Below are positions 1-59,214 of a stretch of 64,000 nucleotides of DNA, in pieces (the stretch's first letter is position 1; each line of letters opens with the position of its first letter). The stretch lies in IMG/VR virus record IMGVR_UViG_3300023179_008905, positions 1-64,000 of that record. One strand, given 5' to 3'. Origin of the DNA: a virus. The position numbers and the translations under genes are program-made. The notes under the pieces are model-generated. The model was given only the letters and a program-made list of their open reading frames with translations. It made no database searches and was not told where the DNA came from.

Positions 1-366
1 CCTGGAGTTAAATTTATTAAAGAGTGGATGCCGATATTTGTAGAGCTACCTGATGAAATAACTGTTGAAAAGGGTGATCTTTATGATTCGCCTGAATTAA
101 GAAATGAAGTTATTGAAGCGATAACCCGTGCGTTTGATGCTAACATGGCAAAAGATAAAGAGCTTGTAAATGATTTTATAGACTCATTAAAATATAAAAA
201 CAGCTATTCGCACTCGAGTGAGAAAAAAGAAGGTGAAGGTACAGGTGAAGAGCCTAACATTGAAGAATATCCTGAAGACGATGATGTAACAGGGGAGCTA
301 AGATCTATGGGTGCAATTGGCGGCCGTCGTGGTTATGACGCGGGTGGTTTTAGTTACGGGGACTAA
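1..366 (+). CDS. Hypothetical acidic protein, probably 5'-truncated
   Basis: Frame is open from base 1 (cct gga gtt...) into the ORF called at 28; E/D-rich, no motif recognised. Confidence 0.55.
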   Translation, partial: PGVKFIKEWMPIFVELPDEITVEKGDLYDSPELRNEVIEAITRAFDANMAKDKELVNDFIDSLKYKNSYSHSSEKKEGEGTGEEPNIEEYPEDDDVTGELRSMGAIGGRRGYDAGGFSYGD

Positions 367-1099
367 TCTCTTTACACTTAAACTTTTCCCAAGGTATTGA
401 AATTTTATACTTTAAAGGGTCTATAACCCTCGAATCTATAAAGCCTTTTATTCTCAAAGAGCACGCAGTACATTCACCGCATGCTTGCTCTTCTCCCTCA
501 TAACAAGTCCAGGTTTGACTAAAATTAACCCCGAGCTTTATACCGAGTTTTACAATCTCTTCTTTAGATTTATCAATTAAAGGGGCTTGAACTACAATTC
601 TATTTCTTCTGTTAAGAGCGGATACTTTATTGATTTGTTCGAGAAATTCTTCACTACCATCCCAAAACCCAGCAACGCTATCGGCTTGGGCAGCTCCATG
701 AAAAACTGTGCTAGCACCGTAGTTTTCTGCTATAGCAAGTGAGATACTGAGTAACATTAAGTTTCTATACGGAACATAGTTAACTGTCTGCGGATCCCCC
801 ATTACATCCTTTGCCTTAGCAACTGCAATTTTGTTATTTAGAAGTGAAGAGACCTGACATATATCTCTAAAAAACGGTAATTTTATGTGTAAACTATCGA
901 CCGGCATATCAAGCGTTTCAATCTGAAATGAAGCGCAGTTTACTTCTTTATCACGGTGCTTTTGACCGTAGTCGTAGTTAACCGTAATTATTTTATCATA
1001 CCTACTAGCGGCTAAATGTAGTAGGACGGTACTGTCCATTCCCCCAGAAATGGGGACTACAGCTTTACTCGTGAGGCTCTTCTTCGCCTTGCACTTCAT
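350..1099 (-). CDS. queC: 7-cyano-7-deazaguanine synthase
   Basis: SGGMDS PP-loop, YGQKH, VPYRN, and Zn motif TWTCY...CGECTAC; exact start uncertain. Confidence 0.95.
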   Translation of the reverse strand: MKCKAKKSLTSKAVVPISGGMDSTVLLHLAASRYDKIITVNYDYGQKHRDKEVNCASFQIETLDMPVDSLHIKLPFFRDICQVSSLLNNKIAVAKAKDVMGDPQTVNYVPYRNLMLLSISLAIAENYGASTVFHGAAQADSVAGFWDGSEEFLEQINKVSALNRRNRIVVQAPLIDKSKEEIVKLGIKLGVNFSQTWTCYEGEEQACGECTACSLRIKGFIDSRVIDPLKYKISIPWEKFKCKEISPRN

Positions 1100-5238: not shown

Positions 5239-5418
5239 TTAGAAATGTAAAACGATCTTAAACAAAACAATAGCAGAGCTTATAGCTGCTATAAGACTAG
5301 TAAACGTTCTTAGTAGCTCTAATTTATGATTGTGCTTATCTACCCAGATCTCAACATGATCGCGAAGGCGTCCTTCTTTCTCTAATTTTTTTATTTCTTT
5401 TTTAGAGAGCTTTCTCAT
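5239..5418 (-). CDS. 59-aa small membrane protein (not in ORF track)
   Basis: MRKLSKKEIKK...LIAAISSAIVLFKIVLHF*; ATGA overlap with the upstream glycosyltransferase stop; C-terminal hydrophobic helix. Confidence 0.6.
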   Translation of the reverse strand: MRKLSKKEIKKLEKEGRLRDHVEIWVDKHNHKLELLRTFTSLIAAISSAIVLFKIVLHF

Positions 5419-6638: not shown

Positions 6639-6646
6639 AATATATA

Positions 6647-11936: not shown

Positions 11937-11962
11937 TAACTTAAATAATAGTATAGAGTTAT

Positions 11963-12229: not shown

Positions 12230-12250
12230 TTGTTTACACCTAATTACCTT

Positions 12251-12670: not shown

Positions 12671-12688
12671 TTTCATACATACTTAAGT

Positions 12689-13249: not shown

Positions 13250-13265
13250 ATTAATAAATATTTAA

Positions 13266-14177
13266 ATGGCCGATATAACAGTTTCCCAGCTTACTAGAGG
13301 ACTGCCTCCGGTAAATGCTTTTATCCCTTTTTCTAATGGAACGACTACGCTTGCTGTTGCTCCTTCTGGGTTATTGGTTAATGCGGGTAAAGTTGGTATT
13401 AATACAGCAACACCAACGTCAGAATTAACACTTTCAAGATCTGTACAGCTTTCGGCTGATTCTATAGAGCTTAATGTTAGAAGCGGTATTACTGAAGGTA
13501 ATTTTGATGGAATAAAATTTACGCAAACCGCAGGTACTTATAATGAGCTCGCAGCTATAAGATGCAAGTATTTTAATAACGGGCAAACGGCATTAGAACT
13601 TTCAACAAGAGAAAATAATGGTGTAAACCTTAAGGTTGAGTCAATGCTTACTCTGGACCGTAATAACGGTAATGTCTTAAATCATGGTTTAATATTAAGT
13701 GGTAGCAGTTTATATAATCAAGGAAATAGTGCTTTTCCTGATAGTGGTGTTACAAGTCTAAATGTTGCTAGAGGGTGGACATATGGCTACAACGATGTTA
13801 CTGGAAACCTATCTTTTTACACTCATATACTATTACCTCCTGATTTTAATCAAAACAACTATCAAATGTTTTTATTAGAAATAAAAGGATATAATTTTAG
13901 AAGCGCTACAGCTCAACTTATAAATTTAATTGTAGGTGGTTACGTAACCCCAGTATCAAACGGTGGACCAATAAGAAATGTTTCCGCCTGGCAGGCATTA
14001 GGTGATTTTAATCCAACAGCATATTATAGCAGTACATATAATAGAGGGGTTGTGAGGTTTTACTTATCAAATGCTTACTATGCTTCTTTTGTAGTTAATT
14101 CCATATGTGTAGGTAATGGTAGAATTATTAAGCCTGGGGAACTACAAATCATTTATAGTTCCAGTGCAACATTATAA
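13266..14177 (+). CDS. Putative fibre/decoration protein (MAD-anchor family)
   Basis: GKVGINTATP tail-fibre repeat; N-terminus shared with 20776 and 21659; TAAATA 5 nt upstream. Confidence 0.65.
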   Translation: MADITVSQLTRGLPPVNAFIPFSNGTTTLAVAPSGLLVNAGKVGINTATPTSELTLSRSVQLSADSIELNVRSGITEGNFDGIKFTQTAGTYNELAAIRCKYFNNGQTALELSTRENNGVNLKVESMLTLDRNNGNVLNHGLILSGSSLYNQGNSAFPDSGVTSLNVARGWTYGYNDVTGNLSFYTHILLPPDFNQNNYQMFLLEIKGYNFRSATAQLINLIVGGYVTPVSNGGPIRNVSAWQALGDFNPTAYYSSTYNRGVVRFYLSNAYYASFVVNSICVGNGRIIKPGELQIIYSSSATL

Positions 14178-15869: not shown

Positions 15870-17043
15870 GCAATTTCTTCTTGAAGGTGGAGTAGCTGGT
15901 CATATGGCTCATCCTTTCGATTTACCTAATGTAAATACGGGTAAAGATCTTATTAATATTTTTAATAAAATAGTTAATAGTTTAAAAAAGAAGCCTTCTA
16001 CAGTAAAGATAGACGGTGTTAACGCTTCTATAAAGTTAATAACAAATGCCGAGGGTAATAAAGAGTTTGCTATGGATAGAGGCTCTAGCAAGCCTGAAGA
16101 CGTGGAAGGTGTTACAATATCAAGACTAACTGCAAGGTTTCCAGCAGGTCATGGTATGATAGAAACAGGAAAGACTGTTCTTAATATTTTTAATACAGCT
16201 ATTCCTAGCATAGAACCTGAACTAAAAAAACTTAAAATGTGGAATAATCCTAAAATTCTTTTTAATATGGAATTCGTAAAAGGTGCAACCAATGTTATTG
16301 GATATGCTAATAACTTCTTAGCAATACATGGTTTAAATGAAATTATAGAAGTAAAAAGCCCTGTTCGTGGAAGCGTAAGAAGAGCTTCACGTGAAATATC
16401 TTATGACAAAAAAGCATTACTTTCTTTAATTCAAAAAGTAGACCCTATTGCTAAGAAGTCCGGTTTTGATGTTGAGCATGAATTTACTGTAGAATTAAAA
16501 GATGTAAATTTTAATGATGTTTTAAATCAAAAATTTACCGTTAGCTATGATTCTAAAACTTTTGATACTAGGCCTTTAAAAGATTGGCTTTTAAAAGCTA
16601 AGAATCCTAGGGCTGAAAAAATTAAAACAGCTTCTGGCAAAACAATAAGTGCAATGAGCTTAGAAAACTATAAGAATGTAATTTCTGGTATTCCTATGAT
16701 ACAGTATATAGGTAATAATAAAAAGGTAATAGAAAAAGCTATCAACGGTGCTTTATTTTATCATGCAACATTACTAATGGGTGATAAGATTAAGCAAGCT
16801 TCGACATCAAAGCTTGGCTCTCTTCAAACACAAGAAGGCATTGTTGTAAGAGATTCTACAGTATCTTCTAACCCAGTTAAAATAACAGGAAGCTTTATCA
16901 CAGGAAAAGAGGCTGGTAAATTTGCCAAACGCGGTGAAAATGAAGAAAATCAAAGACAAATGTCTAATCAAAATTATATGGTAAATCCTGAATTTGGAAA
17001 AGAAGGTGCACGATTAACGCAAACACCAGGAATGTCTATATGA
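15856..17043 (+). CDS. Ligase-superfamily nucleotidyltransferase-like protein (DUF6267-like)
   Basis: GHMAHP, TVKIDG (KxDG), EGIVV, VKITG. Confidence 0.55.
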   Translation: MLTFKQFLLEGGVAGHMAHPFDLPNVNTGKDLINIFNKIVNSLKKKPSTVKIDGVNASIKLITNAEGNKEFAMDRGSSKPEDVEGVTISRLTARFPAGHGMIETGKTVLNIFNTAIPSIEPELKKLKMWNNPKILFNMEFVKGATNVIGYANNFLAIHGLNEIIEVKSPVRGSVRRASREISYDKKALLSLIQKVDPIAKKSGFDVEHEFTVELKDVNFNDVLNQKFTVSYDSKTFDTRPLKDWLLKAKNPRAEKIKTASGKTISAMSLENYKNVISGIPMIQYIGNNKKVIEKAINGALFYHATLLMGDKIKQASTSKLGSLQTQEGIVVRDSTVSSNPVKITGSFITGKEAGKFAKRGENEENQRQMSNQNYMVNPEFGKEGARLTQTPGMSI

Positions 17044-17690
17044 AATTCGATAAATTAGTAAATGAAATTTTAATGCCACAAAAAAATAATTTAATCGTTA
17101 TATTTCCTGGGCGCTTTCAACCTTTTCATGTAGGTCATAAACATTTATTTGATATGGCTAAAAAACAGTTTCCGGGGGCTGATTTTTTTATAGCTACAGC
17201 AGATGAAATAGCTAAAAAAGAAGACCCATCTCGCTATCCTTTTAATTTTAAAGAAAAAAAAGAAATTATTAAAGCAACGGGTATTCCTGAAAAAGAAATA
17301 GCCCAGGTTAAAATGCCTTATAAGCCTTTAGAAATTTTAAAAAATTATGATCCTAATGTTGCAAAAGTAGTTTATCTTGTAGGTAAAAAAGATATGGAAT
17401 CAGATCCTCGTTTTGCATTTGGAATAACTAAGAAAGGAACGCCTACTTATTTTCAACCGTTTGCTGATTTACAATCTATGCAACCATTTAAAGAGCAAGG
17501 TGGTCACGGTTATATCTATGCTCCGGCTACAATTGAATTTAACCTAGGTAAAAAGAAGATAACAAGTGCAACCGAACTTAGAAATATGTATAAAGCATCT
17601 AATGAAGCTGTAAGAAAACAAATCGTGCAAGCTGTTATTGGAAAATTTGACCCTAAAATTTATAACCTATTTAATTCTAAATTAAGTTAA
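17040..17690 (+). CDS. HIGH-motif cytidylyl/adenylyltransferase-like protein
   Basis: FPGRFQPFHVGH, VGKKD, SATELR. Confidence 0.8.
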   Translation: MKFDKLVNEILMPQKNNLIVIFPGRFQPFHVGHKHLFDMAKKQFPGADFFIATADEIAKKEDPSRYPFNFKEKKEIIKATGIPEKEIAQVKMPYKPLEILKNYDPNVAKVVYLVGKKDMESDPRFAFGITKKGTPTYFQPFADLQSMQPFKEQGGHGYIYAPATIEFNLGKKKITSATELRNMYKASNEAVRKQIVQAVIGKFDPKIYNLFNSKLS

Positions 17691-19092: not shown

Positions 19093-19752
19093 ATGGAAAC
19101 ATTTAAAGAATTTTATGATAAACCGGTCTTTGGAGTTACTGAGTTTGTTGACATCGATGGTGTGGGTCGTGTTAAAGCCAAAATTGATAGTGGTAACGAG
19201 GCCTTTAACGTCCTTCATGGGGTGGATGTCTCTGAAGATAGTGAAAGTGTATCTTTCACTACCGTAGATGGTAAACAAATCAAAGCACCTAAAGCAGGTG
19301 ACATTAAAATTCATATTGGAAGCGGAGTAAAAGAAGATAGACCTATAGTAAAATTGAATATAAAAATAAATGGAAAAGAATACAAAGATGTTCCTTTCAG
19401 TATTGCTGATCGTTCAGAAAATGAAGATCCTATTTTAGTTGGTGAGCCCTTTCTTAAGAAACTAAATGCGGTTATTGATGTTAACAAAGAATTACATGAA
19501 TCAACGCGTTACAATGTTATTGCTATTAATAAAAAAGATCCGTTGTCAAGAGAATGGATGAGACCGAGTTTTAGCGAAAAGGCCATTCGCCATATAGCTA
19601 ACAAACAGAAAACTTTAATTGTAAATCAACACGGAGGTCCTAAGTTTAAGGGAAAAGATATTCTAAAAATTTACAACCCACAAACAAAAAAACCTTTTAT
19701 AGTTTTTAAGAAAAAATTAAAATCTAAACCCTCTGAATCCGATACTCTGTAA
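19093..19752 (+). CDS. RimK-associated retropepsin-like protease
   Basis: AKIDSG, ADRS..EDPILVG; TAAATA 6 nt upstream. Confidence 0.75.
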   Translation: METFKEFYDKPVFGVTEFVDIDGVGRVKAKIDSGNEAFNVLHGVDVSEDSESVSFTTVDGKQIKAPKAGDIKIHIGSGVKEDRPIVKLNIKINGKEYKDVPFSIADRSENEDPILVGEPFLKKLNAVIDVNKELHESTRYNVIAINKKDPLSREWMRPSFSEKAIRHIANKQKTLIVNQHGGPKFKGKDILKIYNPQTKKPFIVFKKKLKSKPSESDTL

Positions 19753-20065: not shown

Positions 20066-20719
20066 TTAGATCAATTTTCTATTTTGTGCAAATTCAATAA
20101 ACTTATAAAACTCGTTTCTTGAGTTATCCTTATCATCTAAGAAAGCACCAGACATTCTAGCTGTACGCATGGTAGAATCATGTCTAATACCACGATTCGA
20201 ACAACAGGTATGAGCTGCTTCAATCATTACAGCTACACCCTTATTCTTTAAGCATACCTCATCAATATATTTGTGAATTTGCATTGTTAGGTTTTCTTGA
20301 ACTTGAGGGCGACGGGCAAACCAATCAACAATACGATTTAGCTTACTTAAACCAATAACCTTACCGTCTTTAGCAGGAATATAAGCAACATGCGCAAACC
20401 CCATAAAGGGCGCATGATGATGAGAGCAAAGAGATGTTAATTTAATATTTGTTTGTGCGACTATACCGTCATACTTATCTACATTATCGAATGCAGTAAC
20501 TTTAGGAGGAGTGCTATAACAGCCCCATGCAAAATCTTCAACAAAAGCCTTTGCTACCCGGTGTGGTGTATTATCACTATTTGGATCGTTTCTCCAATCA
20601 TAACCTAAAGCATCCATGTACGCTTCGTACGCTTTAGCTGCTCGTTCTATAATTTGTTCTCTTTCTTCTTGAGTATGAGGGTGATTGTGATTTGCAAAAG
20701 CTAATTTCTTTTTAAACAT
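20066..20719 (-). CDS. folE: GTP cyclohydrolase I
   Basis: TPHRVAK, CSHHHAPF, GLSKLNR, RPQVQE, HTCCSNRG. Confidence 0.96.
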   Translation of the reverse strand: MFKKKLAFANHNHPHTQEEREQIIERAAKAYEAYMDALGYDWRNDPNSDNTPHRVAKAFVEDFAWGCYSTPPKVTAFDNVDKYDGIVAQTNIKLTSLCSHHHAPFMGFAHVAYIPAKDGKVIGLSKLNRIVDWFARRPQVQENLTMQIHKYIDEVCLKNKGVAVMIEAAHTCCSNRGIRHDSTMRTARMSGAFLDDKDNSRNEFYKFIEFAQNRKLI

Positions 20720-20775
20720 ATTGAGTATTATATGATAAGATGTGCCTAGTTCAACATAAATATTATTGTATATCT

Positions 20776-21654
20776 ATGGCTGATACAACCATTAAACAAT
20801 TGACAACAGTAATACCTAAAGGTGTAGGGCTAATACCATTATCACAAGATAATGTTACAGTTAATACTCTTGCTTCTAGTATTACTGCAAGTGCTATGCC
20901 TTCTAGTGTAAGATATAGTGTTGAATATTTAGTGGTGGGAGGAGGCGGTGGAGGGGGGCAAGATTATGCCGGTGGTGGGGGTGCAGGTGGCTATGTTGAA
21001 GGAAATATGTTTTTAAATGTTGGTGAAAGATATCAAGTTATAGTGGGCTTAGGGGGGAGAAAAGATTTACAACATTATTATAATGAAGATGGTACTGATT
21101 CTGTTTTTGGCCCTGTAGTAGCTTTTGGTGGTGGTGCAGGTATGTCATATCAAAACAGACGACAAGCTAATAATGGTGGTTCAGGCGGTGGGTGTGGCTA
21201 TCAGTATGCTTATATCGGTAGAGGCTTTCCGGGTCAAGGTAATAATGGTATAATAGGAGGTAATATAGGTTCAACAGCAGGTGGTGGTGGTGGTGGAGCT
21301 GGTGGAGTTCCTCTAACAATAACACCCTATATTGGCGGGGTAGGTAAGTCTTCATCAATTACGGGAACAAGTACTTTGTATGCAAGTGGTGGTTCACATA
21401 TAGGTGATTTAGGTACTGTTAAAGCGTCTGACCCTACACCAAACACTGGTCACGGGGGTAATAGTGCTTATGGATCGTGGACAGGCGATGGAACAGCGGC
21501 TAACGGAGCAACTGGTATTGTTGTTATAGCTTATGCTGGCGCACAGCGCGGTACTGCTTACAATTATAATAATGTTATAATACCAGCTGATACCTCTTCT
21601 AGAGCAGGCTATACTGTGCATAAATTTACTCAAGGAGGCTATTACATAGCTTAG
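20776..21654 (+). CDS. Gly-rich putative fibre/decoration protein (MAD-anchor family)
   Basis: VEYLVVGGGGGGG...GGGGAGG, GIVVIAY, VHKFT; true start probably MADTT at 20776. Confidence 0.7.
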   Translation: MADTTIKQLTTVIPKGVGLIPLSQDNVTVNTLASSITASAMPSSVRYSVEYLVVGGGGGGGQDYAGGGGAGGYVEGNMFLNVGERYQVIVGLGGRKDLQHYYNEDGTDSVFGPVVAFGGGAGMSYQNRRQANNGGSGGGCGYQYAYIGRGFPGQGNNGIIGGNIGSTAGGGGGGAGGVPLTITPYIGGVGKSSSITGTSTLYASGGSHIGDLGTVKASDPTPNTGHGGNSAYGSWTGDGTAANGATGIVVIAYAGAQRGTAYNYNNVIIPADTSSRAGYTVHKFTQGGYYIA

Positions 21655-21658
21655 TTTT

Positions 21659-22498
21659 ATGGCAGACGTAACAATATCTAATTTAACTTATGGGATTCCT
21701 TCTACAGGGTCCTTTATACCTTATACTGATAATGGTGTTACGCTTAAAGTTTCACCCTCTGGTATATATGCTCAAAAAAATAGTTTATTAATGGTAGGTG
21801 CATCGGGGATTGCACCTGATGTATTTCCTGAAAATCAGACTGCTGCAATTGCACCGCTGACAAACTATAATGCAATTTTTCGAGGAGGGTGGTTAGTAAA
21901 CATTACAGATAAAAATACAACTTGGGGTGATTCTGCAGCAAGAATAGGTGTTTTAAAAGTTGGAGCGGGTGATAGCTGGTGGTTTTCACATAATGCAGAC
22001 GGTTCTTGTGGAATACATCAAAGTAGACAAGGTGATAGAATACATATACTTTCTGGTGGTGAAGTGACTAAACCCTACCAGCCATTTTTATATGCAAGTA
22101 GAGCAGGTAAAGGTGATTATACATACTCAAATGCTACTGTTGTAGCAAATACAGCTACAATACCTTTTAATACTATCATAAAGCAAGTTGGAGACAATTA
22201 CAATACGTCAACTGGATTATACACTGCACCTGTGAATGGTGTTTATTTAATAGAAGCGGGTATAAATTTTGGCGGTGGGAAAGTAAATCAAATGTGGCCT
22301 TTAATAGATGGGGTAAGGCAACCTACATTCGGGGGAGGACAGGACTATTCTAGTTTTAATATTTTATTCGGTACAACAATTTTATATTTAAATAAAAATC
22401 AAACTGTGGGTATAAGAGTTTACAGTGGTCAAACAAGTAATATTACTATTTATGAAAATGAATCACATACATTTTTAAAGATAGCTTTATTAGGATAA
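21659..22498 (+). CDS. C1q-like-domain putative fibre protein (MAD-anchor family)
   Basis: PYQPF, FN.....G..YNTSTGLYTAPVNGVY C1q-like signature. Confidence 0.7.
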   Translation: MADVTISNLTYGIPSTGSFIPYTDNGVTLKVSPSGIYAQKNSLLMVGASGIAPDVFPENQTAAIAPLTNYNAIFRGGWLVNITDKNTTWGDSAARIGVLKVGAGDSWWFSHNADGSCGIHQSRQGDRIHILSGGEVTKPYQPFLYASRAGKGDYTYSNATVVANTATIPFNTIIKQVGDNYNTSTGLYTAPVNGVYLIEAGINFGGGKVNQMWPLIDGVRQPTFGGGQDYSSFNILFGTTILYLNKNQTVGIRVYSGQTSNITIYENESHTFLKIALLG

Positions 22499-24036: not shown

Positions 24037-24750
24037 ATGAGATATAAAAGTACTAAGATCTTAGAATTAGGTAGTTGTGCATTTAGACAATGGAGAGCTG
24101 TACATAGTCATTGTAAGTTTATTCATGGCTATAGATTAGTTGCTAAGTTTTGGTTTAGTTGTGATTCTTTAGATGATAAGAATTGGGTAGTAGATTTTGG
24201 AGGGTTAGATGAACTTAAGAAAATTTTACAAAAACAATTTGATCATACATTATGTGTTTCAGAAGATGATCCTTTGTTAGAAGGATTTAAATCATTACAT
24301 ACTGCTGGTGGTTGTGATTTAAGAATTATGCCTAAGGGAGTAGGTATTGAAAGGACAGCTGAATGGTGTTTAAATGTTTCTGATGCGCATGTAAGACAGT
24401 TAACAAATAATCGTTGTTGGGTTGAAAAAGTTGAAGTATGGGAACATGAAAAAAATTCAGCTATAGCAATTGCAGAAAATATTAATCATAATCATGTTAA
24501 TTTGAGCAATGCATTTAATGTTACAAATAATGTTACAACTGGTAATTCTGAAACTGTTGCAACAACATTGCAACCACCTATTAATCAGGTAAGAACGTTT
24601 TTAGACGACGTACAGCAAGAAACCGGTGTTAATGTTGCTAATGTTTTAAAACAAGTTCCTCAGCAGCAAGTACCGAGACCAGCTAATGTAGGTAATAAGA
24701 CGTCTTCAGGTTTTTCGAATTTATTTGGCGGTACAAGCTGGGGAATGTAA
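24037..24750 (+). CDS. queD: 6-carboxy-5,6,7,8-tetrahydropterin synthase with C-terminal extension
   Basis: HCKFIHGY, VVDFG, FDH, VEVWE; promoter TTGATT-16-TATAAT at 23981-24008. Confidence 0.9.
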   Translation: MRYKSTKILELGSCAFRQWRAVHSHCKFIHGYRLVAKFWFSCDSLDDKNWVVDFGGLDELKKILQKQFDHTLCVSEDDPLLEGFKSLHTAGGCDLRIMPKGVGIERTAEWCLNVSDAHVRQLTNNRCWVEKVEVWEHEKNSAIAIAENINHNHVNLSNAFNVTNNVTTGNSETVATTLQPPINQVRTFLDDVQQETGVNVANVLKQVPQQQVPRPANVGNKTSSGFSNLFGGTSWGM

Positions 24751-25542: not shown

Positions 25543-26286
25543 ATGAGTGATTCGTATATTTTTTTAAGTGACGATAAGTTATTTTATACTCTAGAAGGTG
25601 AAGGTGAGTATGTAGGATATCCTTCTGTTTTTATGCGTTTATCAATGTGTAATTTAACGTGTAAAGGATTTGCTTCATCTGATTCACCTCACGGTTGCGA
25701 TAGTTTTGTCAGCTGGTCAGTAAAAAACAGAATGACGTTTGATGAGGTGTTTGAATATATGGCACAAAATAGTTATAACTGCCATTTAAAAGATGGTGCT
25801 ATATGGAAAATTACTGGTGGCGAACCACTTATTCAACAAAAAACATTATTAGAGCTTGTTGATCAATTTATTTTCCGCTTTGGGTTTGTACCGAGAATAG
25901 ACTTTGAAACAAATGCTACAATTATACCTGACCATCAGTGGGTAGATTGGAAAGCAACATTTACAACTTCACCTAAGCTTTCAAACAACGGAGATCCGAT
26001 TGAAAAGAGATATAAGCCTGAAGTATTAAAATGGCATGTAAAACATAATTCGGGCTTTAAATTTGTTATTAATAATGAAAACGATTTTAATGAAGTTTTA
26101 GAAAAATATATACTTGAGCCGAATATTAAAGTTCCCCGGGAAAGAGTATGGTTAATGCCTTGTTGTGGTAGTAGAGAAGAGCATATTGAAAAGGCGTCTG
26201 TTATTGCCGAGTTATGTAAAAAACATAAGCTTAAATTTAGTCCAAGATTACAACTTGTTATTTGGAATAAAGCTCTTAAAGTATAA
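25543..26286 (+). CDS. queE: 7-carboxy-7-deazaguanine synthase (radical SAM)
   Basis: FYTLEGEG, FMRL..CNLTC, ITGGEP, ETN, SPK, SPRLQ. Confidence 0.92.
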   Translation: MSDSYIFLSDDKLFYTLEGEGEYVGYPSVFMRLSMCNLTCKGFASSDSPHGCDSFVSWSVKNRMTFDEVFEYMAQNSYNCHLKDGAIWKITGGEPLIQQKTLLELVDQFIFRFGFVPRIDFETNATIIPDHQWVDWKATFTTSPKLSNNGDPIEKRYKPEVLKWHVKHNSGFKFVINNENDFNEVLEKYILEPNIKVPRERVWLMPCCGSREEHIEKASVIAELCKKHKLKFSPRLQLVIWNKALKV

Positions 26287-26287: not shown

Positions 26288-27025
26288 ATGAGAATAGCTA
26301 TTTCCGGTAGCGCATGTCAGGGTAAATCTACATTAGTTAAAGATTTTTTAAAAAATTGGCCCCAGTATAAAAGATCTGAAGAATCATATAGAAAGCTAAT
26401 AAAGAAAGAAAAAATTAATATTAATAAAAAAGTTGATCAAGATGGCCAATGGAAAATTTTAAATTGTCTTATAGATGATATACAAAAAACGGAAAAGGGT
26501 GACAAGGTAATTTTTGATAGATGTCCGCTAGATAATATTATCTATTCTTTATGGGCAGAAGAAAAAGGTACTTCTGATATTGATAGAGATTTTATTAAAA
26601 AATGTATACCTTTAGTACAGGAGAGTATGAAATCTATTGATATTATTTTCTTTTTACCTATTACAAAAGTTGCACCGGTACCTATAGAAGATAGACCTGA
26701 TCGCGAAATTGATAAAGTTTTTATTGAAGAAGTAGATCATATCTTTAAAGCTGTTTCTCATGCTTTGGCACAAAAAGGCATATGCCCTTTTATGGCTTCA
26801 GATGACAGGCCTCCAATTATTGAAGTATTTGGAACACCAGAGGAGCGTATTGAGATTATAAAACTTTATTTGGATGAAAAAGGTGATGTAATAACTGATT
26901 CTACTAGTGTATTAGATCCTGAAAATATTAATAATATGGAAACCATACTAAGAGCACAAGAGAAAGCACTTAGTGATGAAAAATACGAGCAAAAAATAAA
27001 AAAGAATATAATACTCGGACAATAA
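26288..27025 (+). CDS. P-loop nucleotide kinase (AAA_28/NadR-like)
   Basis: ISGSACQGKST, DRCPLD; start MRIAIS immediately after queE. Confidence 0.75.
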   Translation: MRIAISGSACQGKSTLVKDFLKNWPQYKRSEESYRKLIKKEKININKKVDQDGQWKILNCLIDDIQKTEKGDKVIFDRCPLDNIIYSLWAEEKGTSDIDRDFIKKCIPLVQESMKSIDIIFFLPITKVAPVPIEDRPDREIDKVFIEEVDHIFKAVSHALAQKGICPFMASDDRPPIIEVFGTPEERIEIIKLYLDEKGDVITDSTSVLDPENINNMETILRAQEKALSDEKYEQKIKKNIILGQ

Positions 27026-28037: not shown

Positions 28038-28853
28038 ATGGAGAAAATAGGTGTTGGTATTATAACATGTAATCGACCACGGTTTTTTGTAAAATGCTTT
28101 AGATCTATACCTCTAGTAGATAATATTATCGTTGTTAATGATGGTGCGGATTTTGAGGATGTAAGTAAGCTGCAACAGGAAAAGTCTTTTTATTATGTTC
28201 ATAATAAAACAAATATTGGTGTTGGTAGATCAAAAAATATTGCTTTAAAATATTTATTAGAACAAGGCTGCACACATTTATTTCTTATAGAAGATGATAT
28301 AGTAGTAAAAAATAAAGACGTATTTAATGTTTATATTAATGCTAGAAAAATAACCGGTTTACAGCATTTTAATTTTGGTTATCATGGTCCAGCTAATAGA
28401 AACAATATTTCTAAAGGTCAGCCGGTTCCCAGATTTATTATTGATTACGGTGATACAAAAATTGCTATAAATGCAAATAGCGTTGGCGCATTTTGTTATT
28501 ACACCAAAGAGGCTCTCGAAGAAACGGGGTTATTAGATGAAAGTTATTTAAATGCTTTTGAACATGTAGATCATGACTACAGGCTTTTTAAAGCAGGATA
28601 TTATACGCCATATTGGAATTTTGCTGACATAGCTAATAGTTTAGAATATTTAGATGAATTAGAATGCTCTGAAAATAGTAGCTCTATTAGACCGAGATCA
28701 GATTGGCGTCAGAATATTGAGCGCGGATTACAAATTTTTAAAAATAAGCATGGTTATACACCAGCATGGGAAAATAGAGTACCCGATTCTACAGAAGAAG
28801 AGGTAAAAAAAGTTTTAAAGACGATTTATAAAAAATATTCATTGAAAAAATAA
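28038..28853 (+). CDS. GT2 glycosyltransferase
   Basis: IITCNRP, VVNDG, LIEDD, GLLDE, EHVD. Confidence 0.85.
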   Translation: MEKIGVGIITCNRPRFFVKCFRSIPLVDNIIVVNDGADFEDVSKLQQEKSFYYVHNKTNIGVGRSKNIALKYLLEQGCTHLFLIEDDIVVKNKDVFNVYINARKITGLQHFNFGYHGPANRNNISKGQPVPRFIIDYGDTKIAINANSVGAFCYYTKEALEETGLLDESYLNAFEHVDHDYRLFKAGYYTPYWNFADIANSLEYLDELECSENSSSIRPRSDWRQNIERGLQIFKNKHGYTPAWENRVPDSTEEEVKKVLKTIYKKYSLKK

Positions 28854-31138: not shown

Positions 31139-32635
31139 ATGAGTTTAGATTTACTTGTTATTCACCCCAACGCTGCTAAAAAAATTTATCAAGGGCTAAG
31201 TAAAAGTTTTTCTGCCAAAGAGCCACCCATATGGGCAGGGCTTATAGCTAATTACATACGTAAGCATGGTCATTCTGTACAAATTTTAGATTGTGAAGCA
31301 TTAGAATATACTTTAGATGAAACACTTAGTGAAATAAGAAAACTTGATCCTAAGCTCGTGTGTACTGTAGCTTACGGTCAGCAGCCTTCAGCATCCACAC
31401 AAAATATGACTGGTGCTTTAAGCTTAATGCAGAAAATTGGCGCCGAAACAAACATTCCTAGAGTTTTCTCTGGTCCTCACCCTTCATCTCTTCCTGAGCT
31501 TACTCTTAAGCAAGACCCGGGTTGCTATGTCTGTGAAGGGGAAGGCCCTAAAACAGTTTTACATCTGTTAGAAGCTATTAAAAATAATGAAAAAGATTTA
31601 TCTAAAGTCCCGGGATTATGGTATAGTAGTGAAGCAGGTCCTATACGCAATGCACCAGCAACATTATTTAAAGATTTAGATAATGAACTACCTGGAGTTG
31701 CTTGGGATTTATTACCATTAGAAAAATATAGAACGGCTAATTGGCACAGTTGGACAAATAATAATAACACTCAGCCGTTTGCATCTATTTATACGAGCCT
31801 AGGCTGTCCTTTTCAATGCACGTTTTGTATGATTAATGCTCCGTTTAACGACGGTGATATTAAGAATAATGCGTTCAGACACTGGTCTCCGGAATTTATA
31901 ATTAAGCAGTTCGATTTTTTTGCAGAAAAAGGTATTAAGAATGTAAAGATAGCTGATGAAATGTTTGTTTATAAGCCTGCACATTTTATGAAGTTGTGTG
32001 AACTTATAATTGAACGTGGTTATAATTTTAATATGTGGGCTTATGCACGTGTAGACACAATTAGAGAAAAATATCTCGAAACACTTAAAAAGGCCGGTGT
32101 AAATTGGCTGGGTATTGGTATTGAATCTGCTAATAAGCTTGTTCGTCAGGAAGTTACTAAGGGCAAGTTTCAGGAAGTTAATATTCGCGACATAGTAAAA
32201 AAGGTATCGGATTCCGGTATTTGTGTAGGTGGTAATTATATTTTCGGTCTGCCAGGTGATACACACGAAACTATGCAAGAAACGTTAGATCTCGCTTTAG
32301 ACCTTAAAACAGAATATGCTAATTTTTACTGTGCTATGGCTTACCCCGGATCACAGCTTCATAGAGAAGCTGTAAAAAACCGTCCTCACGTATTACCTGA
32401 AAATAATGGAATTGGTTGGGTCGGTTATTCACAACATGCTTTTGAAACATTTAATTTACCCACCGATAAATTAACTAATAAAGAAATTTTACAATTTAGA
32501 GATAAAGCTTTTGAAACATATTTTACTAATCCGGACTATATAGCTAAAATGAAAGCAAAGTTTGGAGTTGCATTTGAAGAAGAATTAACTAGAATGTTAA
32601 GTATAAAGCTTGAAAGGAAGCTATTAACTGAATAA
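31139..32635 (+). CDS. B12-binding radical SAM enzyme
   Basis: N-terminal cobalamin-binding-like domain (GPHPS, GEG); GCPFQCTFC. Confidence 0.88.
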   Translation: MSLDLLVIHPNAAKKIYQGLSKSFSAKEPPIWAGLIANYIRKHGHSVQILDCEALEYTLDETLSEIRKLDPKLVCTVAYGQQPSASTQNMTGALSLMQKIGAETNIPRVFSGPHPSSLPELTLKQDPGCYVCEGEGPKTVLHLLEAIKNNEKDLSKVPGLWYSSEAGPIRNAPATLFKDLDNELPGVAWDLLPLEKYRTANWHSWTNNNNTQPFASIYTSLGCPFQCTFCMINAPFNDGDIKNNAFRHWSPEFIIKQFDFFAEKGIKNVKIADEMFVYKPAHFMKLCELIIERGYNFNMWAYARVDTIREKYLETLKKAGVNWLGIGIESANKLVRQEVTKGKFQEVNIRDIVKKVSDSGICVGGNYIFGLPGDTHETMQETLDLALDLKTEYANFYCAMAYPGSQLHREAVKNRPHVLPENNGIGWVGYSQHAFETFNLPTDKLTNKEILQFRDKAFETYFTNPDYIAKMKAKFGVAFEEELTRMLSIKLERKLLTE

Positions 32636-54820: not shown

Positions 54821-55735
54821 TTACTGTCTTACCGTCTTAGTAAAATACTTAAACTCGTCTATTAAAGCCGTATCTAATAAGCTATAGTTACTAGCTCTTG
54901 TTGGATTAATATCGATACCACCACGTCTTACATATAGACAACTTACTACAAGCTCTTCTGGTTTAAACAATCTAAACAACCGCATATAAATTGTCTCACA
55001 AATCTCTTCATGAAAATGACATTCATCTCTAAATGAGACAATATACTGTAAAAGAGATGTCTGATTAATCTCATACTTTCCTTTATAATGAATATAAACA
55101 TCGCCCCAATCAGGTTGTGAAGTTACCCTACAATTACTTTTTAATAAAGCAGAATGAAATCTTTGTACTCTAGATTCAGGGATCTTTATTGCAGATAAAA
55201 TAGAAGGATCCTCAGTATATGATTTAGATTGTATCATTGTAACATCAATATTATTTTCTAATGTAGGGTAGTCTTTATTCGAAAACACCGGGGGATAATA
55301 CAAATCATCCGATACTGCTGCAGCAGATCTTACATAGACCTTCACATCTGTTTCCAAAAGATTAGATAGATCTCTTGCAATTGTATTTTGCAATTCATTT
55401 AAAACTTGAATCATATTACCTTTAAATACTTGCATGTTAAAAGAATTCATATATAGCTTAATAGATTTTGATTCAACTATATAATGGTTTTTACAAGGAT
55501 AAACAATTTTAGCTATAGCGGCTATAGGCATTCCTTCTGCAGTCAGGCACGATACTTCATATGCATTCCAAATATCATAACCACCAAACGGGGCGTTTTC
55601 ATCAGTTATATCTAAATGCTTTCTATTATTAATTCTTGGTTCACGGACTAACAGAGAAGGGTCGTAAGTCGACTTATAACCAGTTACCTTACCTAAATGC
55701 TTTGAAATGTTACTATTATCTAATACCTTGTTCAT
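54821..55735 (-). CDS. queF: NADPH-dependent preQ0 reductase (bimodular QueF)
   Basis: D.WNAYE.S, VESKS.KLY.NS, SNCRVTSQPDWG, FHE, RRGGIDINP. Confidence 0.93.
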   Translation of the reverse strand: MNKVLDNSNISKHLGKVTGYKSTYDPSLLVREPRINNRKHLDITDENAPFGGYDIWNAYEVSCLTAEGMPIAAIAKIVYPCKNHYIVESKSIKLYMNSFNMQVFKGNMIQVLNELQNTIARDLSNLLETDVKVYVRSAAAVSDDLYYPPVFSNKDYPTLENNIDVTMIQSKSYTEDPSILSAIKIPESRVQRFHSALLKSNCRVTSQPDWGDVYIHYKGKYEINQTSLLQYIVSFRDECHFHEEICETIYMRLFRLFKPEELVVSCLYVRRGGIDINPTRASNYSLLDTALIDEFKYFTKTVRQ

Positions 55736-56300
55736 GTAGTTTAATTTTAATCTGTTCCATTCGTTCTTCAACTGTTCCTTTTAAAAACACTACTCTTTCT
55801 CTCCATGGGTGTTGATTAAGATAATAATTTTCATACTTATCGATAATTGCATCTCTAAACTCTATATCAATACTCCTCTCACCATCGCTAACTAAATTAA
55901 TCTCATGAGGATTCGGATAAAATATAATATCATACTTAGTAAAAAAATTATGCCAATAATTTTTCGCTTGATCGTATGATAATCTTGAAACCCGTCCCTT
56001 TTCAAAAAAGTATTCTGTATACACTAACCCATCTAGTAAACATCTATCATGTACAGTACCCTTACACCATCCACCCATACTACCGCATGTAAACAAATTC
56101 TTTAGTTCCTCGTTTATTATTAAAAGCTGTGTTACATCACTTGCACCCTCTTCATTAATCGGTACGTTACATTCATCTCTTATTTTCCTAGTAACTTCGT
56201 TAATATAAAAGAATTTATCAAATATACCTCCACTGCTTCTCATTGTCTTAAGCAATGTCGTTTTACCAGAGCACTGAGGACCTGTAAACGTAATATTCAT
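55716..56300 (-). CDS. P-loop nucleotide kinase (AAA_28-like)
   Basis: TGPQCSGKTT, DRCLLD, DGER, GTVEER. Confidence 0.78.
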   Translation of the reverse strand: MNITFTGPQCSGKTTLLKTMRSSGGIFDKFFYINEVTRKIRDECNVPINEEGASDVTQLLIINEELKNLFTCGSMGGWCKGTVHDRCLLDGLVYTEYFFEKGRVSRLSYDQAKNYWHNFFTKYDIIFYPNPHEINLVSDGERSIDIEFRDAIIDKYENYYLNQHPWRERVVFLKGTVEERMEQIKIKLHEQGIR

Positions 56301-56449
56301 TTCTTATTCCAATCAACACCAAATAAAAGATTTTTTAATATCTTTATTTCTTCTAAAAATACTTTATTTTCTTGCTCAAGCTCAGCCAAAAGAATCTTCA
56401 ATCTCTTGACTTCATCATTCTTTTTTCGAAAAATATCTAATAAAGACAT
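56297..56449 (-). CDS. 50-aa coiled-coil protein (not in ORF track)
   Basis: MSLLDIFRKK...VDWNKK*; TTGATT-17-TATACT-5 nt-ATG; ATGA overlap with the kinase. Confidence 0.55.
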   Translation of the reverse strand: MSLLDIFRKKNDEVKRLKILLAELEQENKVFLEEIKILKNLLFGVDWNKK

Positions 56450-56484
56450 ACTATAGTATAAATGACTTTTTATTATTAATCAAG

Positions 56485-56832
56485 CTATTTACACCACTTT
56501 TTTCTTTTCACAATTTCAGCAATTATACAGTATACCGATGTATCACTAAATGCATCAAAGATAGGCTCATTAGCAGATTCAAACGTCTTCTTACGCAATA
56601 CTAAATTAATTAAACGCTGAATTTTATCGTTAAGTCGAACTACGATTGCAGAAATAGAGGCAATAATATCTTCTTTCTTGTGTAAATCAGATCCCAGGCT
56701 TATGTTGTGCGGCCCGTAATCAAATTGCTTCTTACAGAATGTTTCGTATTGCTCTTTTTGAATCTTTTTAAATTCCTCGCAAGTCTCAGGATACGTAGAC
56801 TCTACACTTTTAATATAATCTTCCGGGTTCAA
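56485..56832 (-). CDS. DUF1599-like nucleotide-modification-associated protein
   Basis: KQFDYG..NI, RLNDKIQRL, E.I.D...D..VY. Confidence 0.72.
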   Translation of the reverse strand: MNPEDYIKSVESTYPETCEEFKKIQKEQYETFCKKQFDYGPHNISLGSDLHKKEDIIASISAIVVRLNDKIQRLINLVLRKKTFESANEPIFDAFSDTSVYCIIAEIVKRKKWCK

Positions 56833-57800
56833 ATTCTTACTCCGTAACCAATCTTATTTAAATTAAGAGCATTTAAATTGCAACCCCCAGCATAGCTGAT
56901 TGCGCTCTGAAGATCTTGAGTTATTTCTAATAGCTTTTCATCGTAAGTAAATGAATCGGTTTCCATAAGCTTCATTGTACCTTCTATGTTCTTTTTATCA
57001 ATCTTATTATGTATACTAGCAGAACCGTAATACTGTTTATACCGTCTCCCGTTAGTATCTTTTACAACCGGTGCAGGGCTATCCGTACAAGCAGCAAATA
57101 TAGATCCGCACATAACCATACTAGCCCCAGCGACTAGCGCTTTAGCTATATCACCGTTGCAGCGAACTCCACCGTCTGCAATAATAGGTACATCAATATC
57201 TGAATTATAATTATTTGCACACTCCATAACGCAGCTAAACATAGGATATGTAAACCCGGTTTTGTCTTTAGTAGTACATGCATGACCACCACCGATACCA
57301 ACTTTAACTGCATCAGCACCTGCAAGGGCAAGATATTCAACACCTTTACGTGTAGCTACATTACCAGCTATTATCTTTGTTTCAGGTAGTTTATTTTTAA
57401 TAAACTTTACTTGGTCAGCAACTTTAGCATGATGCCCATGAGCCACATCAATTGTAATAAAATTTACTCTTAATTTATGTCGAGATATATTGTCAATTAA
57501 CGCTTTATCTTTTTCCTGTATCCCTACACTTATAGATACATAATTGAAAAAAGCTTCATTTGCATCTCTTACAAACGCAAAAATATCGTGATCAAACCGA
57601 TGCATAACATAAAAGTAATATTTCGAATCTAACGCTTGACAAATATCAAAATCTATGCAGCATTTCATATTTGCTGGGATAACTGGAAGACGAAAATTTT
57701 TATCTAAAAACTTTACCTCTGTACTAATTTCTGCCCTCGTCTTAACCGAATTAAAATTAGGCTTAAGAAAAACGTTTTCGTAATGCAGAGAAATGTCCAT
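56829..57800 (-). CDS. guaC: GMP reductase
   Basis: PANM, IDVAHGH, KVGIGGGHACTT, IIADGG, YYGSAS; no CBS domains. Confidence 0.88.
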   Translation of the reverse strand: MDISLHYENVFLKPNFNSVKTRAEISTEVKFLDKNFRLPVIPANMKCCIDFDICQALDSKYYFYVMHRFDHDIFAFVRDANEAFFNYVSISVGIQEKDKALIDNISRHKLRVNFITIDVAHGHHAKVADQVKFIKNKLPETKIIAGNVATRKGVEYLALAGADAVKVGIGGGHACTTKDKTGFTYPMFSCVMECANNYNSDIDVPIIADGGVRCNGDIAKALVAGASMVMCGSIFAACTDSPAPVVKDTNGRRYKQYYGSASIHNKIDKKNIEGTMKLMETDSFTYDEKLLEITQDLQSAISYAGGCNLNALNLNKIGYGVRI

Positions 57801-57801
57801 A

Positions 57802-58371
57802 CTAGCGATTTAAAATATTATATGCTTTAAAAAAGCTTTTCCACAAATCAAATGCAACGTCATGTAAAATATTATAGACTTCATTTAATGTTTTACTCTC
57901 TATCGATACCCCTTGACTCATCATAATTTCACCCTCATCAACTTCAGGCACTACTTTATGAATAACGCAACCAGCTAATTTATAGCCATTTACAAACGCT
58001 CTCTCCTGAGGATTAAACCCTTTTAGAGACGGGTACTTGTCAATAAGCCCGGGGTGTAGATTATATATTTCATATTTTTCACATATTTCTTTTGGAACAA
58101 TACGTAAATAGCCGTGTAAAGTTATAACTGGATTTTTAAATTTAGATAATACTTCTGTATAATCTTCTAAAGAAGGTTTTAGAGGTAACATATACCATAT
58201 AGTTTGATTGAGTTTATGCTCTCTAAAAGTAGTTGTACGAAGCAAATCTTTATTTACATTATCCGTTGTAATTTTATTAGTAACGATAGCATCAGGATAA
58301 ACTTCTAAGGCTTTACAGAGATTATTAATTTCTGTACCGGTCTGTGAAAAAAACGCTACCCAAGGTCTCAT
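57802..58371 (-). CDS. PurN-like formyltransferase (DpdN candidate)
   Basis: FSQTG, GYLRI, YNLHPG, GCVIH.V..EVDEG. Confidence 0.85.
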   Translation of the reverse strand: MRPWVAFFSQTGTEINNLCKALEVYPDAIVTNKITTDNVNKDLLRTTTFREHKLNQTIWYMLPLKPSLEDYTEVLSKFKNPVITLHGYLRIVPKEICEKYEIYNLHPGLIDKYPSLKGFNPQERAFVNGYKLAGCVIHKVVPEVDEGEIMMSQGVSIESKTLNEVYNILHDVAFDLWKSFFKAYNILNR

Positions 58372-59180
58372 CTATATAAAATGCGCTTAAACATTTTAAC
58401 ATTATAATTTAAAATTTCCAATTGATCTGGTGTAAATTGATGCTCTATTAAATCTGCTAATTTTGTCTTAGGTTTAGTCTGTAGACCGTATTCTGCATCA
58501 TAACGCATATTATGAATAGCTGCGACTACAGGGTTACTCGTATCACAACTTACAATATTATATACATTTTTATCAACATAAAATCTAAACTCTTTTGCAA
58601 GAGAGCAGCCTAATAAATGATGAGGCTTATTCCATTCCCATAACCCTGATTCAATTAAATCTGTAATAAATCTCTGTCGTCCTGAACAAAACCTTTCTAG
58701 CTCAGTATTACCCTCACCTATTGTTTGATAATAACTAAAATCAAAACTTATAGCTACCATGTCAGCATCAAATGACATAAAACGATAACAGTTTTTTAAT
58801 TCTTGCCATGTCTTACCCTGTACTGCTCCAATAGCTTTAGTCTGAAATGATGATTTTAAATCCTTAGCTTTATCTCTAAAGCTTAAAAAACTCACCATCG
58901 TTTCTTGCGAATTTTCCAAAACATCTGGAACAATAAACATACTAGGCTCAAGATCTTTTGCGGCTTGATAAAACATTTGCGGATCAAAAGCTTTTCCAAG
59001 CTCAAATATTGAATTATCGAGCAATACTTCTCTGTTATATGTATTTTTGGAGGCTTTAAAAAAATTATAATATTCTGGATATTTTTGAAAAAGATGAACT
59101 AATGCATAGTCAAAATCATTATATTTTCTTGATTGTTCTAATAATGAAATAGGAGATTCATGAGATACTTTCAATAGCAT
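58368..59180 (-). CDS. TGT-fold 7-deazaguanine insertion enzyme (DpdA-like)
   Basis: LLDNS.FE, PDV, AVQG, HHLLG, SCDTS; first gene of the operon ending in queF. Confidence 0.75.
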   Translation of the reverse strand: MLLKVSHESPISLLEQSRKYNDFDYALVHLFQKYPEYYNFFKASKNTYNREVLLDNSIFELGKAFDPQMFYQAAKDLEPSMFIVPDVLENSQETMVSFLSFRDKAKDLKSSFQTKAIGAVQGKTWQELKNCYRFMSFDADMVAISFDFSYYQTIGEGNTELERFCSGRQRFITDLIESGLWEWNKPHHLLGCSLAKEFRFYVDKNVYNIVSCDTSNPVVAAIHNMRYDAEYGLQTKPKTKLADLIEHQFTPDQLEILNYNVKMFKRILYR

Positions 59181-59186: not shown

Positions 59187-59214
59187 ATTATAAATGTAAA
59201 TAATACTATATCAA
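59187..59214. promoter_or_regulatory. Nested divergent promoters: minus-strand TTGATA-16-TATAAT (DpdA-like operon) and plus-strand TAAATA 59197-59202 (baseplate gene)
   Basis: Both elements read directly in the 35-bp intergenic gap. Confidence 0.65.

Follow-up and report, generated by a model that had tools for sequence, protein, structure and literature searches.

Does a phage that replaces every guanine of its genome exchange the base in finished DNA, or does it build a modified nucleotide and polymerize it? This question is raised by a gene run at positions 54821-59180 of the 64,000-nucleotide stretch analyzed here (the window), which makes up the initial 64 kb of a viral contig of 76 kb in IMG/VR (record IMGVR_UViG_3300023179_008905). 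Seven open reading frames (ORFs), the ones that a first-pass annotation of the window had listed, follow one another on the minus strand; they overlap or are separated by short junctions. They encode the putative base-exchanging enzyme DpdA3, the PurN-like formyltransferase DpdN, the GMP reductase GuaC, a 115-residue helical protein, a doubtful 50-residue product, a small P-loop kinase and QueF. Judged from its genes, this module very probably makes DNA in which 2'-deoxy-7-(formylamino)methyl-7-deazaguanosine (fdPreQ1) stands in for deoxyguanosine (dG). For a nucleotide-level, pre-replicative route to that product, the case drawn from the same genes is close to evenly balanced.

The gene set itself is already published, and what the window contributes is mainly one more member, from a clade of uncultured freshwater T4-like phages that is abundant. 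Its value lies in the accessory genes, which recur across distant DpdA3 lineages, sometimes as non-homologous enzymes with the same generic activity. This pattern offers an alternative to the accepted post-replicative model that is concrete and can be tested, and that would also account for the restriction of complete guanine replacement to DpdA3 phages.

The probable formyl-preQ1 module

The first gene of the run (58368..59180, minus strand) encodes a protein of 270 residues that matches phrog_19058 (1.6e-57). In tblastn searches it shares 43-47% identity with DpdA3 from Campylobacter phage CP220 and Flavobacterium phage immuto_2-6A across 90-97% of its length (E 3e-52 to 4e-54). Its AlphaFold (AF2) model is of high confidence (pLDDT 94.4, pTM 0.90), and the top 50 Foldseek matches of this model in the PDB are all bacterial, human or archaeal tRNA-guanine transglycosylases (TGTs; E 2e-8 to 4e-7, TMq 0.58-0.71). 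Two acidic residues, D55 in an LDNS motif and D213 in a DTS motif, are invariant both in nine sequences and in 25 diverse ones, as is the segment H188-L-L-G; D55 and D213 are the probable equivalents of the TGT catalytic aspartates. The stretch HLLG...S-D-T aligns with its counterpart in the bacterial DpdA structure 7UI4, the sole match of the family profile in the PDB, only at E 1.6.

The single sequence of this protein found nothing in the PDB, the Pfam TGT model PF01702 gave no match even at E 10, and the only Pfam match was to DUF6610, the DpdA4 family, at 19 bits and under the cut-off. The last 57 residues, which follow the DTS motif, contain no Cys-x-Cys-x2-Cys or other Cys/His zinc motif. 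Homology, fold, acidic residues and co-encoded 7-deazaguanine synthesis genes all assign the protein to the DpdA3 subfamily, and it is the predicted base-inserting enzyme, exchanging guanine for a 7-deazaguanine.

The DpdA3 family is large, with 3915 representatives after clustering at 50% (E <=0.001), of which 1782 are found at E <=1e-10. Among them are two DpdA3-DpdN fusions of 447 residues (P0273 and P0308), which fall in two clusters. The representatives P0380 and P0276 comprise one DpdA3-DUF3310 fusion (344 residues) and one form of 475 residues with a NUMOD3 DNA-binding motif in its C-terminal region; four others (P0255, P0265, P0366, P0388) carry unassigned extensions. At the 5' end of the window gene, a 70-base stretch (59071-59141) is 81% identical to DNA of Campylobacter Firehammervirus, an unusually high value for such distant phages. 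Directly upstream of the gene lies a sigma-70-like promoter match (59187..59214, minus strand; TTGATA-16-TATAAT, 11/12 positions), which is a consensus match only, in a region that shows no excess of such matches as a whole.

The second gene (57802..58371, minus strand) encodes DpdN, a formyltransferase of 189 residues that matches PF00551 at 61 bits against a cut-off of 26.1. Its closest relatives in the PDB are glycinamide ribonucleotide (GAR) transformylases (1.3e-15), with whose Asn/His/Asp catalytic motifs the invariant residues N104, H106 and D145 align. The substrate of GAR transformylase is a 5'-phosphoribosyl amine. The predicted role of DpdN is to formylate preQ1 at its aminomethyl group; the protein is 46% identical to the DpdN of immuto_2-6A. 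DpdN has been delimited as a short form with homology to YP_010114479, encoded together with DpdA and with FolE to QueF (Cui et al. 2023, PMC10516641). The window protein conforms to this description, being 189 residues long, adjoining DpdA3 and having what appears to be the full pathway in the window.

The run ends with a bimodular QueF (54821..55771, minus strand), for which the ATG at 55735 is the likelier start. Both of its modules exceed their cut-offs (QueF_N, PF14819, 118 bits; QueF, PF14489, 79 bits), and the full-length model TIGR03138 is matched at 266 bits, under its cut-off of 293. Within this gene, positions 54892-55591, about 7% of the stretch queried, share 72% DNA identity with the QueF gene of the 349-kb Vibrio phage 2.275.O, again unusually high for such distant phages. 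No DpdA3 or kinase is annotated near QueF in the Vibrio phage, which is therefore of no use as a control.

The genes for preQ0 had been reported elsewhere in the window, where QueC, FolE, a QueD-like gene and a probable QueE were located. QueC (350..1099, minus strand) is recognized by PF06508 (190 bits) and by TIGR00364 (164 bits, cut-off 150). FolE, the GTP cyclohydrolase I (20066..20719, minus strand), matches PF01227 at 166 bits and the FolE models of NCBIfam at 1e-45 to 1e-50, under their cut-offs. A QueD-like protein of 237 residues (24037..24750, plus strand) matches PF01242 (55 bits) and phrog_2389 (5e-35); residues 3-150 correspond to QueD, and the C-terminal 85 or so residues give a weak NikR-like match. 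The probable QueE (25543..26286, plus strand) is a divergent radical S-adenosylmethionine (SAM) enzyme. It passes the Fer4_12 cut-off narrowly at 23.3 bits, and its only NCBIfam matches are five QueE models, at 1e-9 to 1e-12 and 36-47 bits against cut-offs of 200-300. Its cysteines are spaced C36-x3-C40-x11-C52, which is unusual compared with CX3CX2C or CX14CX2C, and a scan for these two motifs missed it.

A second candidate for QueE, at 31139-32635, was rejected as a B12-binding radical-SAM enzyme of another kind. This protein of 498 residues is encoded on the plus strand among structural genes, and its best NCBIfam matches (HpnJ, BchE and PhpK-type methyltransferases) are all far under their cut-offs.

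With these genes, FolE, QueD, QueE and QueC would convert GTP to preQ0, QueF would reduce preQ0 to preQ1, DpdA3 would replace guanine by the 7-deazaguanine base and DpdN would place a formyl group on the aminomethyl group. These steps are proposed because the genes are orthologous to those of immuto_2-6A. In the DNA of that phage dG is undetectable and fdPreQ1 is present instead, and DpdA3 and DpdN were assigned to it by comparative genomics (Cui et al. 2023, PMC10516641). The identities between the two phages are 43% for DpdA3, 46% for DpdN, 31% for the kinase, 47% for QueF and 53% for FolE. The immuto cluster runs DpdA3, small ORF, DpdN, 'thymidylate kinase', QueF, and the core of the window operon is therefore a diverged copy of the published system, with the shared order DpdA3-DpdN-kinase-QueF. 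The same product is predicted and complete replacement of dG is expected. Both the TGT/DpdA-like identity of the first gene and the formyl-preQ1 modification proposed by the first-pass annotation are thus borne out at the level of genes, by a DpdA3, DpdN and QueF module with an apparently complete preQ0 pathway.

The two systems also differ. The window adds the type-2 GMP reductase, the 115-residue protein gene and the 50-residue ORF within the operon and a second kinase beside QueE, and 55 kb separate the outermost of its dispersed preQ0 genes. Its phage is T4-like with a family-B polymerase, whereas immuto_2-6A has a family-A polymerase. Conversely, immuto_2-6A has a PRA-PH/MazG-like hydrolase and a gene with a phosphoribosyltransferase domain, neither of which was found in the window. 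Other DpdA3 systems are those of CP220 (dADG) and Cellulophaga phage phiST (dDG), which share DpdA3, complete replacement of G, an adjacent small P-loop kinase and an HD or MazG hydrolase in the cluster. Unlike the window, their pathways end at CDG-derived bases and lack QueF and DpdN; the phiST kinase is of AAA_18 type and lies upstream, and CP220 has an extra HD-kinase fusion.

Genes that accompany DpdA3

The kinase of the operon (kinase 1; 55716..56300, minus strand) is a predicted small P-loop kinase of nucleoside/nucleotide type. It matches AAA_28 (PF13521) at 48 bits, over a cut-off of 27, and phrog_2107, 'thymidylate kinase', at 1.8e-25. In its family the Walker A motif G7-x4-G12-K13-T is invariant, as are R86, D90 and R142 outside the P-loop. 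The family profile finds thymidylate kinase 2PBR in the PDB at full length (9.5e-7, positions 1-180), followed by deoxynucleoside kinase, the ribosylnicotinamide kinase domain of NadR and deoxyguanosine kinase. The profile was needed for this result; the single sequence gave only spurious matches to beta-2-microglobulin.

A paralogue, kinase 2 (26288..27025, plus strand), had been overlooked in the first-pass annotation. It is only 25% identical to kinase 1 and has a weak match to deoxynucleoside kinase, but the hidden Markov model of the kinase 1 family (6.6e-30), phrog_2107 (7.8e-16) and AAA_28 (38.8 bits) mark it on sequence grounds as a clear member of that family. It directly follows QueE, and the order QueD-PhoH-QueE-kinase 2 is retained in three relatives.

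To place these genes in context, we retrieved 423 relatives of DpdA3 from IMG/VR with one peptide pattern and scored the 61 close relatives with enough flanking sequence. DpdN, the 115-residue protein gene, the kinase and QueF all follow DpdA3 in 61/61 of these loci; the arrangement is not due to chance. A wider set of 114 deduplicated and more diverse DpdA3 loci from IMG/VR was also compiled. Single-linkage clustering of their DpdA3 at 50% identity merged nearly all of them and gave no count of lineages, and the comparison relied on gene orders and on isolate lineages.

In 100 of these 114 loci, DpdA3 shares its gene run with an AAA_28 kinase. The most frequent order is DpdA3-DpdN-p115-kinase-QueF (35 loci), where p115 denotes the 115-residue protein. 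It is followed by the same order with GuaC after DpdN (DpdA3-DpdN-GuaC-p115-kinase-QueF; 24) and by DpdA3-kinase-QueF (24). Less frequent are DpdA3-DpdN-QueF-QueC (12), DpdA3-DpdN-kinase-QueF (7), DpdA3-kinase (6) and DpdA3-DpdN-kinase-QueF-QueC (3); the other three loci are single cases. It follows from these orders that the kinase persists without DpdN, without the 115-residue protein gene or even without QueF.

Fourteen loci have no kinase in the run. They include a whole lineage with the order DpdA3-DpdN-DUF3310-QueF-QueC, where a DUF3310 gene of 92 codons fills the slot between DpdN and QueF. This lineage is exemplified by three IMG/VR loci (L154, positions 1-13686; L141; L134), in which ThyX, QueD, a 313-residue ORF, FolE, a type-1 GMP reductase and two unknown ORFs come first. 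DpdA3, DpdN, DUF3310, QueF and QueC follow, and then a Vut_1 protein (a YhhQ-like precursor transporter) and a dCTP deaminase-like protein.

The association extends beyond one kinase family. In 77/85 loci, the 3 kb around DpdA3 include a small ORF whose N-terminus carries a Walker A motif, as against 0/17 loci of phage 9g-related DpdA1, a small control set drawn mostly from one clade. A small P-loop protein adjoins DpdA3 in all six isolate lineages checked, and at least two Pfam kinase families are represented. The partners are orthologues of kinase 1, of AAA_28 type, in immuto_2-6A, CP220 and CC_R7. They are of AAA_18/AAA_33 type, directly upstream of DpdA3, in phiST (gp041) and MA9V-3. In Bacillus phage BSTP12 the adjoining protein, again upstream, has a Walker A motif and no family assignment. 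Co-occurrence across phages, which the first-pass annotation had put forward as a check, thus ties the kinase to DpdA3 in distant lineages and through different kinase families.

In BSTP12 (L182, 4381-5729) and the related B. subtilis phages BSP7 and BSTP5/8/10, a DpdA3-like gene stands between a small Walker A protein and DNA polymerase I, near QueC, QueD and FolE. In the records it is named NadR, integrase or polynucleotide kinase. These phages look like unrecognized DpdA3 systems.

Nucleoside triphosphate (NTP) hydrolases form a second recurrent element. One is present in the cluster of each of the three phages with proven full replacement: MazG in phiST, the PRA-PH-type gp208 in immuto_2-6A, two genes before DpdA3, and the HD-kinase fusion in CP220.

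The third gene of the window operon (56829..57800, minus strand) encodes GuaC, a type-2 (Bacillus-like) GMP reductase of 323 residues. In the PDB its top match is to GMP reductase 1YPF (4e-71), whereas no entry of IMP dehydrogenase does better than 1e-41. It has no CBS domains, and the Cys-containing loop of the active site is aligned and retained. The scores of the window protein lie under the curated cut-offs (NF003966, 327.4 bits against 344; TIGR01306, 288 against 466), and its orthologue in L175 passes NF003966 at 350.6 bits. GuaC is an accessory to the system. It is found near DpdA3 in 32/61 of the close relatives, at variable positions and sometimes moved beside nrdB.

Two non-orthologous types of GMP reductase adjoin DpdA3, type 2 in the window and in L175 and type 1 in L154 and L165. 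The type-1 enzymes have 380 residues, lie beside FolE and DpdA3 and, at 527 and 502 bits, clear the curated cut-off (397) by a wide margin. The co-occurrence of GuaC has two sides, with the recruitment of two enzyme types in its favor and its presence in only 32 of the 61 close relatives against it. GMP reductases also occur in many phages without a known link to deazaguanine.

The fourth gene (56485..56832, minus strand) encodes the 115-residue protein, modeled by AF2 as a four-helix protein with pLDDT 89.6 and matching phrog_1485 (1.2e-12). It had been labeled DUF1599, with a possible role as a nucleotide hydrolase. The label finds an echo in the ESM-Atlas, where DUF1599 is present in 27 of the 30 named clusters closest to the protein (on 30-46% of the members; score 0.96). 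No family model matched the protein. There was no match to it in Pfam or NCBIfam, hmmscan returned nothing up to E 10, a search of the whole 76-kb contig with PF07659 (DUF1599/Nmad1) gave no match, and none of 120 homologues has a precomputed Pfam domain. Because the likeness comes from language-model features only, we treat DUF1599 as a lead and not as family membership.

For the hydrolase role no support was found. In hhalign comparisons with the PRA-PH protein of immuto_2-6A, the MazG of phiST and a DUF3310 protein, probabilities were about 0.1%, so that no relation to MazG or PRA-PH is detectable. phmmer found nothing meaningful in the PDB. The best Foldseek match there was AF_0060 (E 1.9), and a wide VIA search returned generic helical hairpins (Z about 7).

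Between this gene and kinase 1 lies the ORF of 50 codons (56297..56449, minus strand), a doubtful gene with weak matches of coiled-coil type that is detectable in just 7/61 of the related loci.

Exchange before or after replication

The first-pass annotation had proposed an exchange before replication, with dGTP depleted so that the modified base replaces G extensively. In such a pathway the substrate of DpdA3 would be a free deoxyguanosine nucleotide or nucleoside, most simply deoxyguanosine monophosphate (dGMP), rather than finished DNA. The two phage kinases would carry the product toward the triphosphate, and the family-B polymerase of the phage would incorporate it. Where present, GMP reductase would convert released or salvaged guanine nucleotides to IMP, which would hold down dGTP and supply adenine nucleotides to a genome rich in AT.

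Several observations count for this route. Kinases, NTP hydrolases, a GMP-draining enzyme and a GAR transformylase-like formyltransferase form the pattern of partners expected if the exchange takes place on a free nucleotide or nucleoside. DpdA3 has only 270 residues and no zinc motif, and the GAR transformylase-like DpdN is fused to it in two representatives. A nucleotide-level route would also account for the 100% replacement in DpdA3 phages, compared with 0.1-30% for the DNA-acting DpdA1, DpdA2 and DpdA4.

A comparable logic operates in other fully substituted genomes. Phage T4 makes hydroxymethyl-dC with the dCTPase gp56, the dCMP hydroxymethylase gp42 and the deoxynucleoside monophosphate (dNMP) kinase gp1. 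The Z genomes of S-2L type depend on MazZ, DatZ and PurZ, as summarized in a 2025 paper. In the proposed parallel, an NTP hydrolase, an enzyme that alters the base at the monophosphate level and a kinase together lead to complete replacement. The enzymes of the DpdA3 system are not homologous to those of T4 or S-2L-type phages, its steps are predicted from genes, and no enzyme that removes a canonical deoxynucleoside triphosphate was identified in the window.

Earlier work contains hints in the same direction. The ADG nucleoside was observed in CP220-infected cells, in the cytoplasm, and a route through modified dGTP in Campylobacter phages is recorded as an earlier suggestion in a 2019 paper. 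The 2019 and 2023 papers on deazaguanine DNA mention neither the kinase nor MazG, and our literature search on DpdA3, on dGMP with deazaguanine and on DUF1599/Nmad1 found no paper that tests or discusses a link to the kinase.

A number of points weigh against exchange on free nucleotides. To our knowledge, every characterized member of the TGT superfamily uses a polynucleotide, either tRNA or DNA, and none a free nucleotide. Genes of nucleotide metabolism cluster in phages in any case, which makes adjacency an indirect argument, and a drain on GMP competes with the GTP needed by FolE. GuaC is missing near DpdA3 in about half of the close relatives, the kinase is missing from the run in the DUF3310 lineage, the DpdA1 controls are few, and the window yielded no identifiable enzyme that removes dGTP. 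A post-replicative route has been proposed for all DpdA subfamilies (Cui et al. 2023, PMC10516641), and a 2025 paper still cites 7-deazaguanine when it needs the standard case of a base modified within the nucleic acid.

We consider a post-replicative alternative a serious contender of lower probability. DpdA3 would exchange guanine for preQ1 or formyl-preQ1 in newly made phage DNA. The P-loop protein would be either an ATP-using helper with a function like that of DpdB or an ordinary dNMP kinase in an early block of nucleotide metabolism, and GuaC would recycle the guanine released from DNA. The helper role is conceivable because bacterial DpdA requires an ATPase partner, the ParB-like DpdB, to insert preQ0 into DNA. 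The alternative further agrees with the polynucleotide substrates of all characterized TGT/DpdA enzymes, with the absence of the kinase from the run in some DpdA3 lineages and with the NUMOD3 motif in one DpdA3 representative. It is also the published proposal, and the sister hypermodifying enzyme DpdM is proposed to act on preQ1 that is already in DNA (Cui et al. 2023, PMC10516641).

The identity of the partner is harder to reconcile with it. The P-loop protein resembles thymidylate and deoxynucleoside kinases, with conserved residues of the acceptor-site type, and not a ParB-like ATPase. An ATPase helper would moreover leave the MazG, PRA-PH and HD hydrolases, the second kinase and the two types of GMP reductase unexplained, and none of the DpdA1 control loci has an adjacent small P-loop ORF. 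The extent of replacement points the same way. Bacterial DpdA/DpdB and phage DpdA1 and DpdA2 (dPreQ0, dADG, dG+) share with DpdA3 the TGT superfamily, base exchange and the preQ0 precursor pathway. They differ in that action on DNA has been demonstrated or proposed for them; DpdA3, for its part, gives no match to the Pfam TGT model. With these systems and with DpdA4, modification covers 0.1-30% of G, whereas replacement is complete with DpdA3 in CP220, phiST and immuto_2-6A; attempts to test DpdA3 in E. coli failed (Cui et al. 2023, PMC10516641).

A ribonucleotide route is improbable. Here either DpdA3, with GMP or GTP as its substrate, or a phosphoribosyltransferase would join the base to ribose phosphate, and the product would pass through the phage kinases and the adjacent class Ia ribonucleotide reductase before polymerization. 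NrdB and NrdA do lie just past the operon, although such genes are common in T4-like phages irrespective of DNA modification. The immuto cluster contains a protein with a phosphoribosyltransferase domain, whereas no phosphoribosyltransferase was found in the window operon or its 61 close relatives. The resemblance of the kinase family to the ribosylnicotinamide kinase domain of NadR fits this route too, but free ribonucleotides of this kind would enter RNA as well.

That the genes merely boost queuosine precursors for host or phage tRNA, with the TGT-like enzyme acting on tRNA and no modification of DNA, is very improbable: phages without DpdA were once suggested to raise host tRNA queuosine, but orthologous DpdA3 is present in three phages with dG-free DNA, DpdN plays no part in queuosine synthesis, and the window DpdA3 lacks the Pfam TGT match and the Cys/His zinc motif.

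Exchange on a free nucleotide or nucleoside thus keeps comparative support, from kinases, hydrolases, GMP reductases and fusions, that stops short of proof. From the interpretation first given to the operon, the formyl-preQ1 module stands, comparative genomics supports the kinase and the GMP reductase as probable members of the DpdA3 system, and for the hydrolase role of the 115-residue protein no support was found. A broader proposal can be put forward tentatively, at somewhat less than even confidence. DpdA3 may be the first enzyme of the TGT superfamily to take a free nucleotide or nucleoside of deoxyguanosine and exchange its base. Together with dedicated kinases, GMP reductase and, in some lineages, an NTP hydrolase, it would form a pre-replicative pathway to a 7-deaza-dGTP analogue for the phage polymerase. 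If so, the system would provide enzymes for making 7-deaza-dGTP analogues, and it would change how such phage genomes are interpreted in work on restriction evasion and sequencing.

The phage and other genes of the window

The 76-kb contig is estimated by CheckV to be about 35% complete, and the G+C content of the window is 30-35%. Genes of T4-like character include a gp23-type major capsid protein, a family-B DNA polymerase, a gp55-like late sigma factor and UvsY; a RecA/UvsX-like protein is also encoded, and the class Ia ribonucleotide reductase is represented by NrdB and NrdA. Among sequenced isolates, none has a major capsid protein more than 35% identical to the one encoded here. A single sequencing run contains the stretch, a lake-water metagenome that is probably the source sample, and no RNA dataset is listed. 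From gene content, capsid divergence and this lake-water run, the phage is therefore an uncultured freshwater T4-like phage.

Some further genes were noted in passing. Among the late genes, the plus strand encodes a protein with a match to retropepsin-like peptidases of RloA3 type (19093-19752), a cytidylyltransferase-like protein (17040-17690) and a rhamnosyltransferase-like protein (28038-28853). Several fibre-like proteins with C1q or glycine-rich ends (Gly_rich_2, C1q) are encoded at 20740-22498 on the plus strand of the window and at 13194-14042 of the locus L006.

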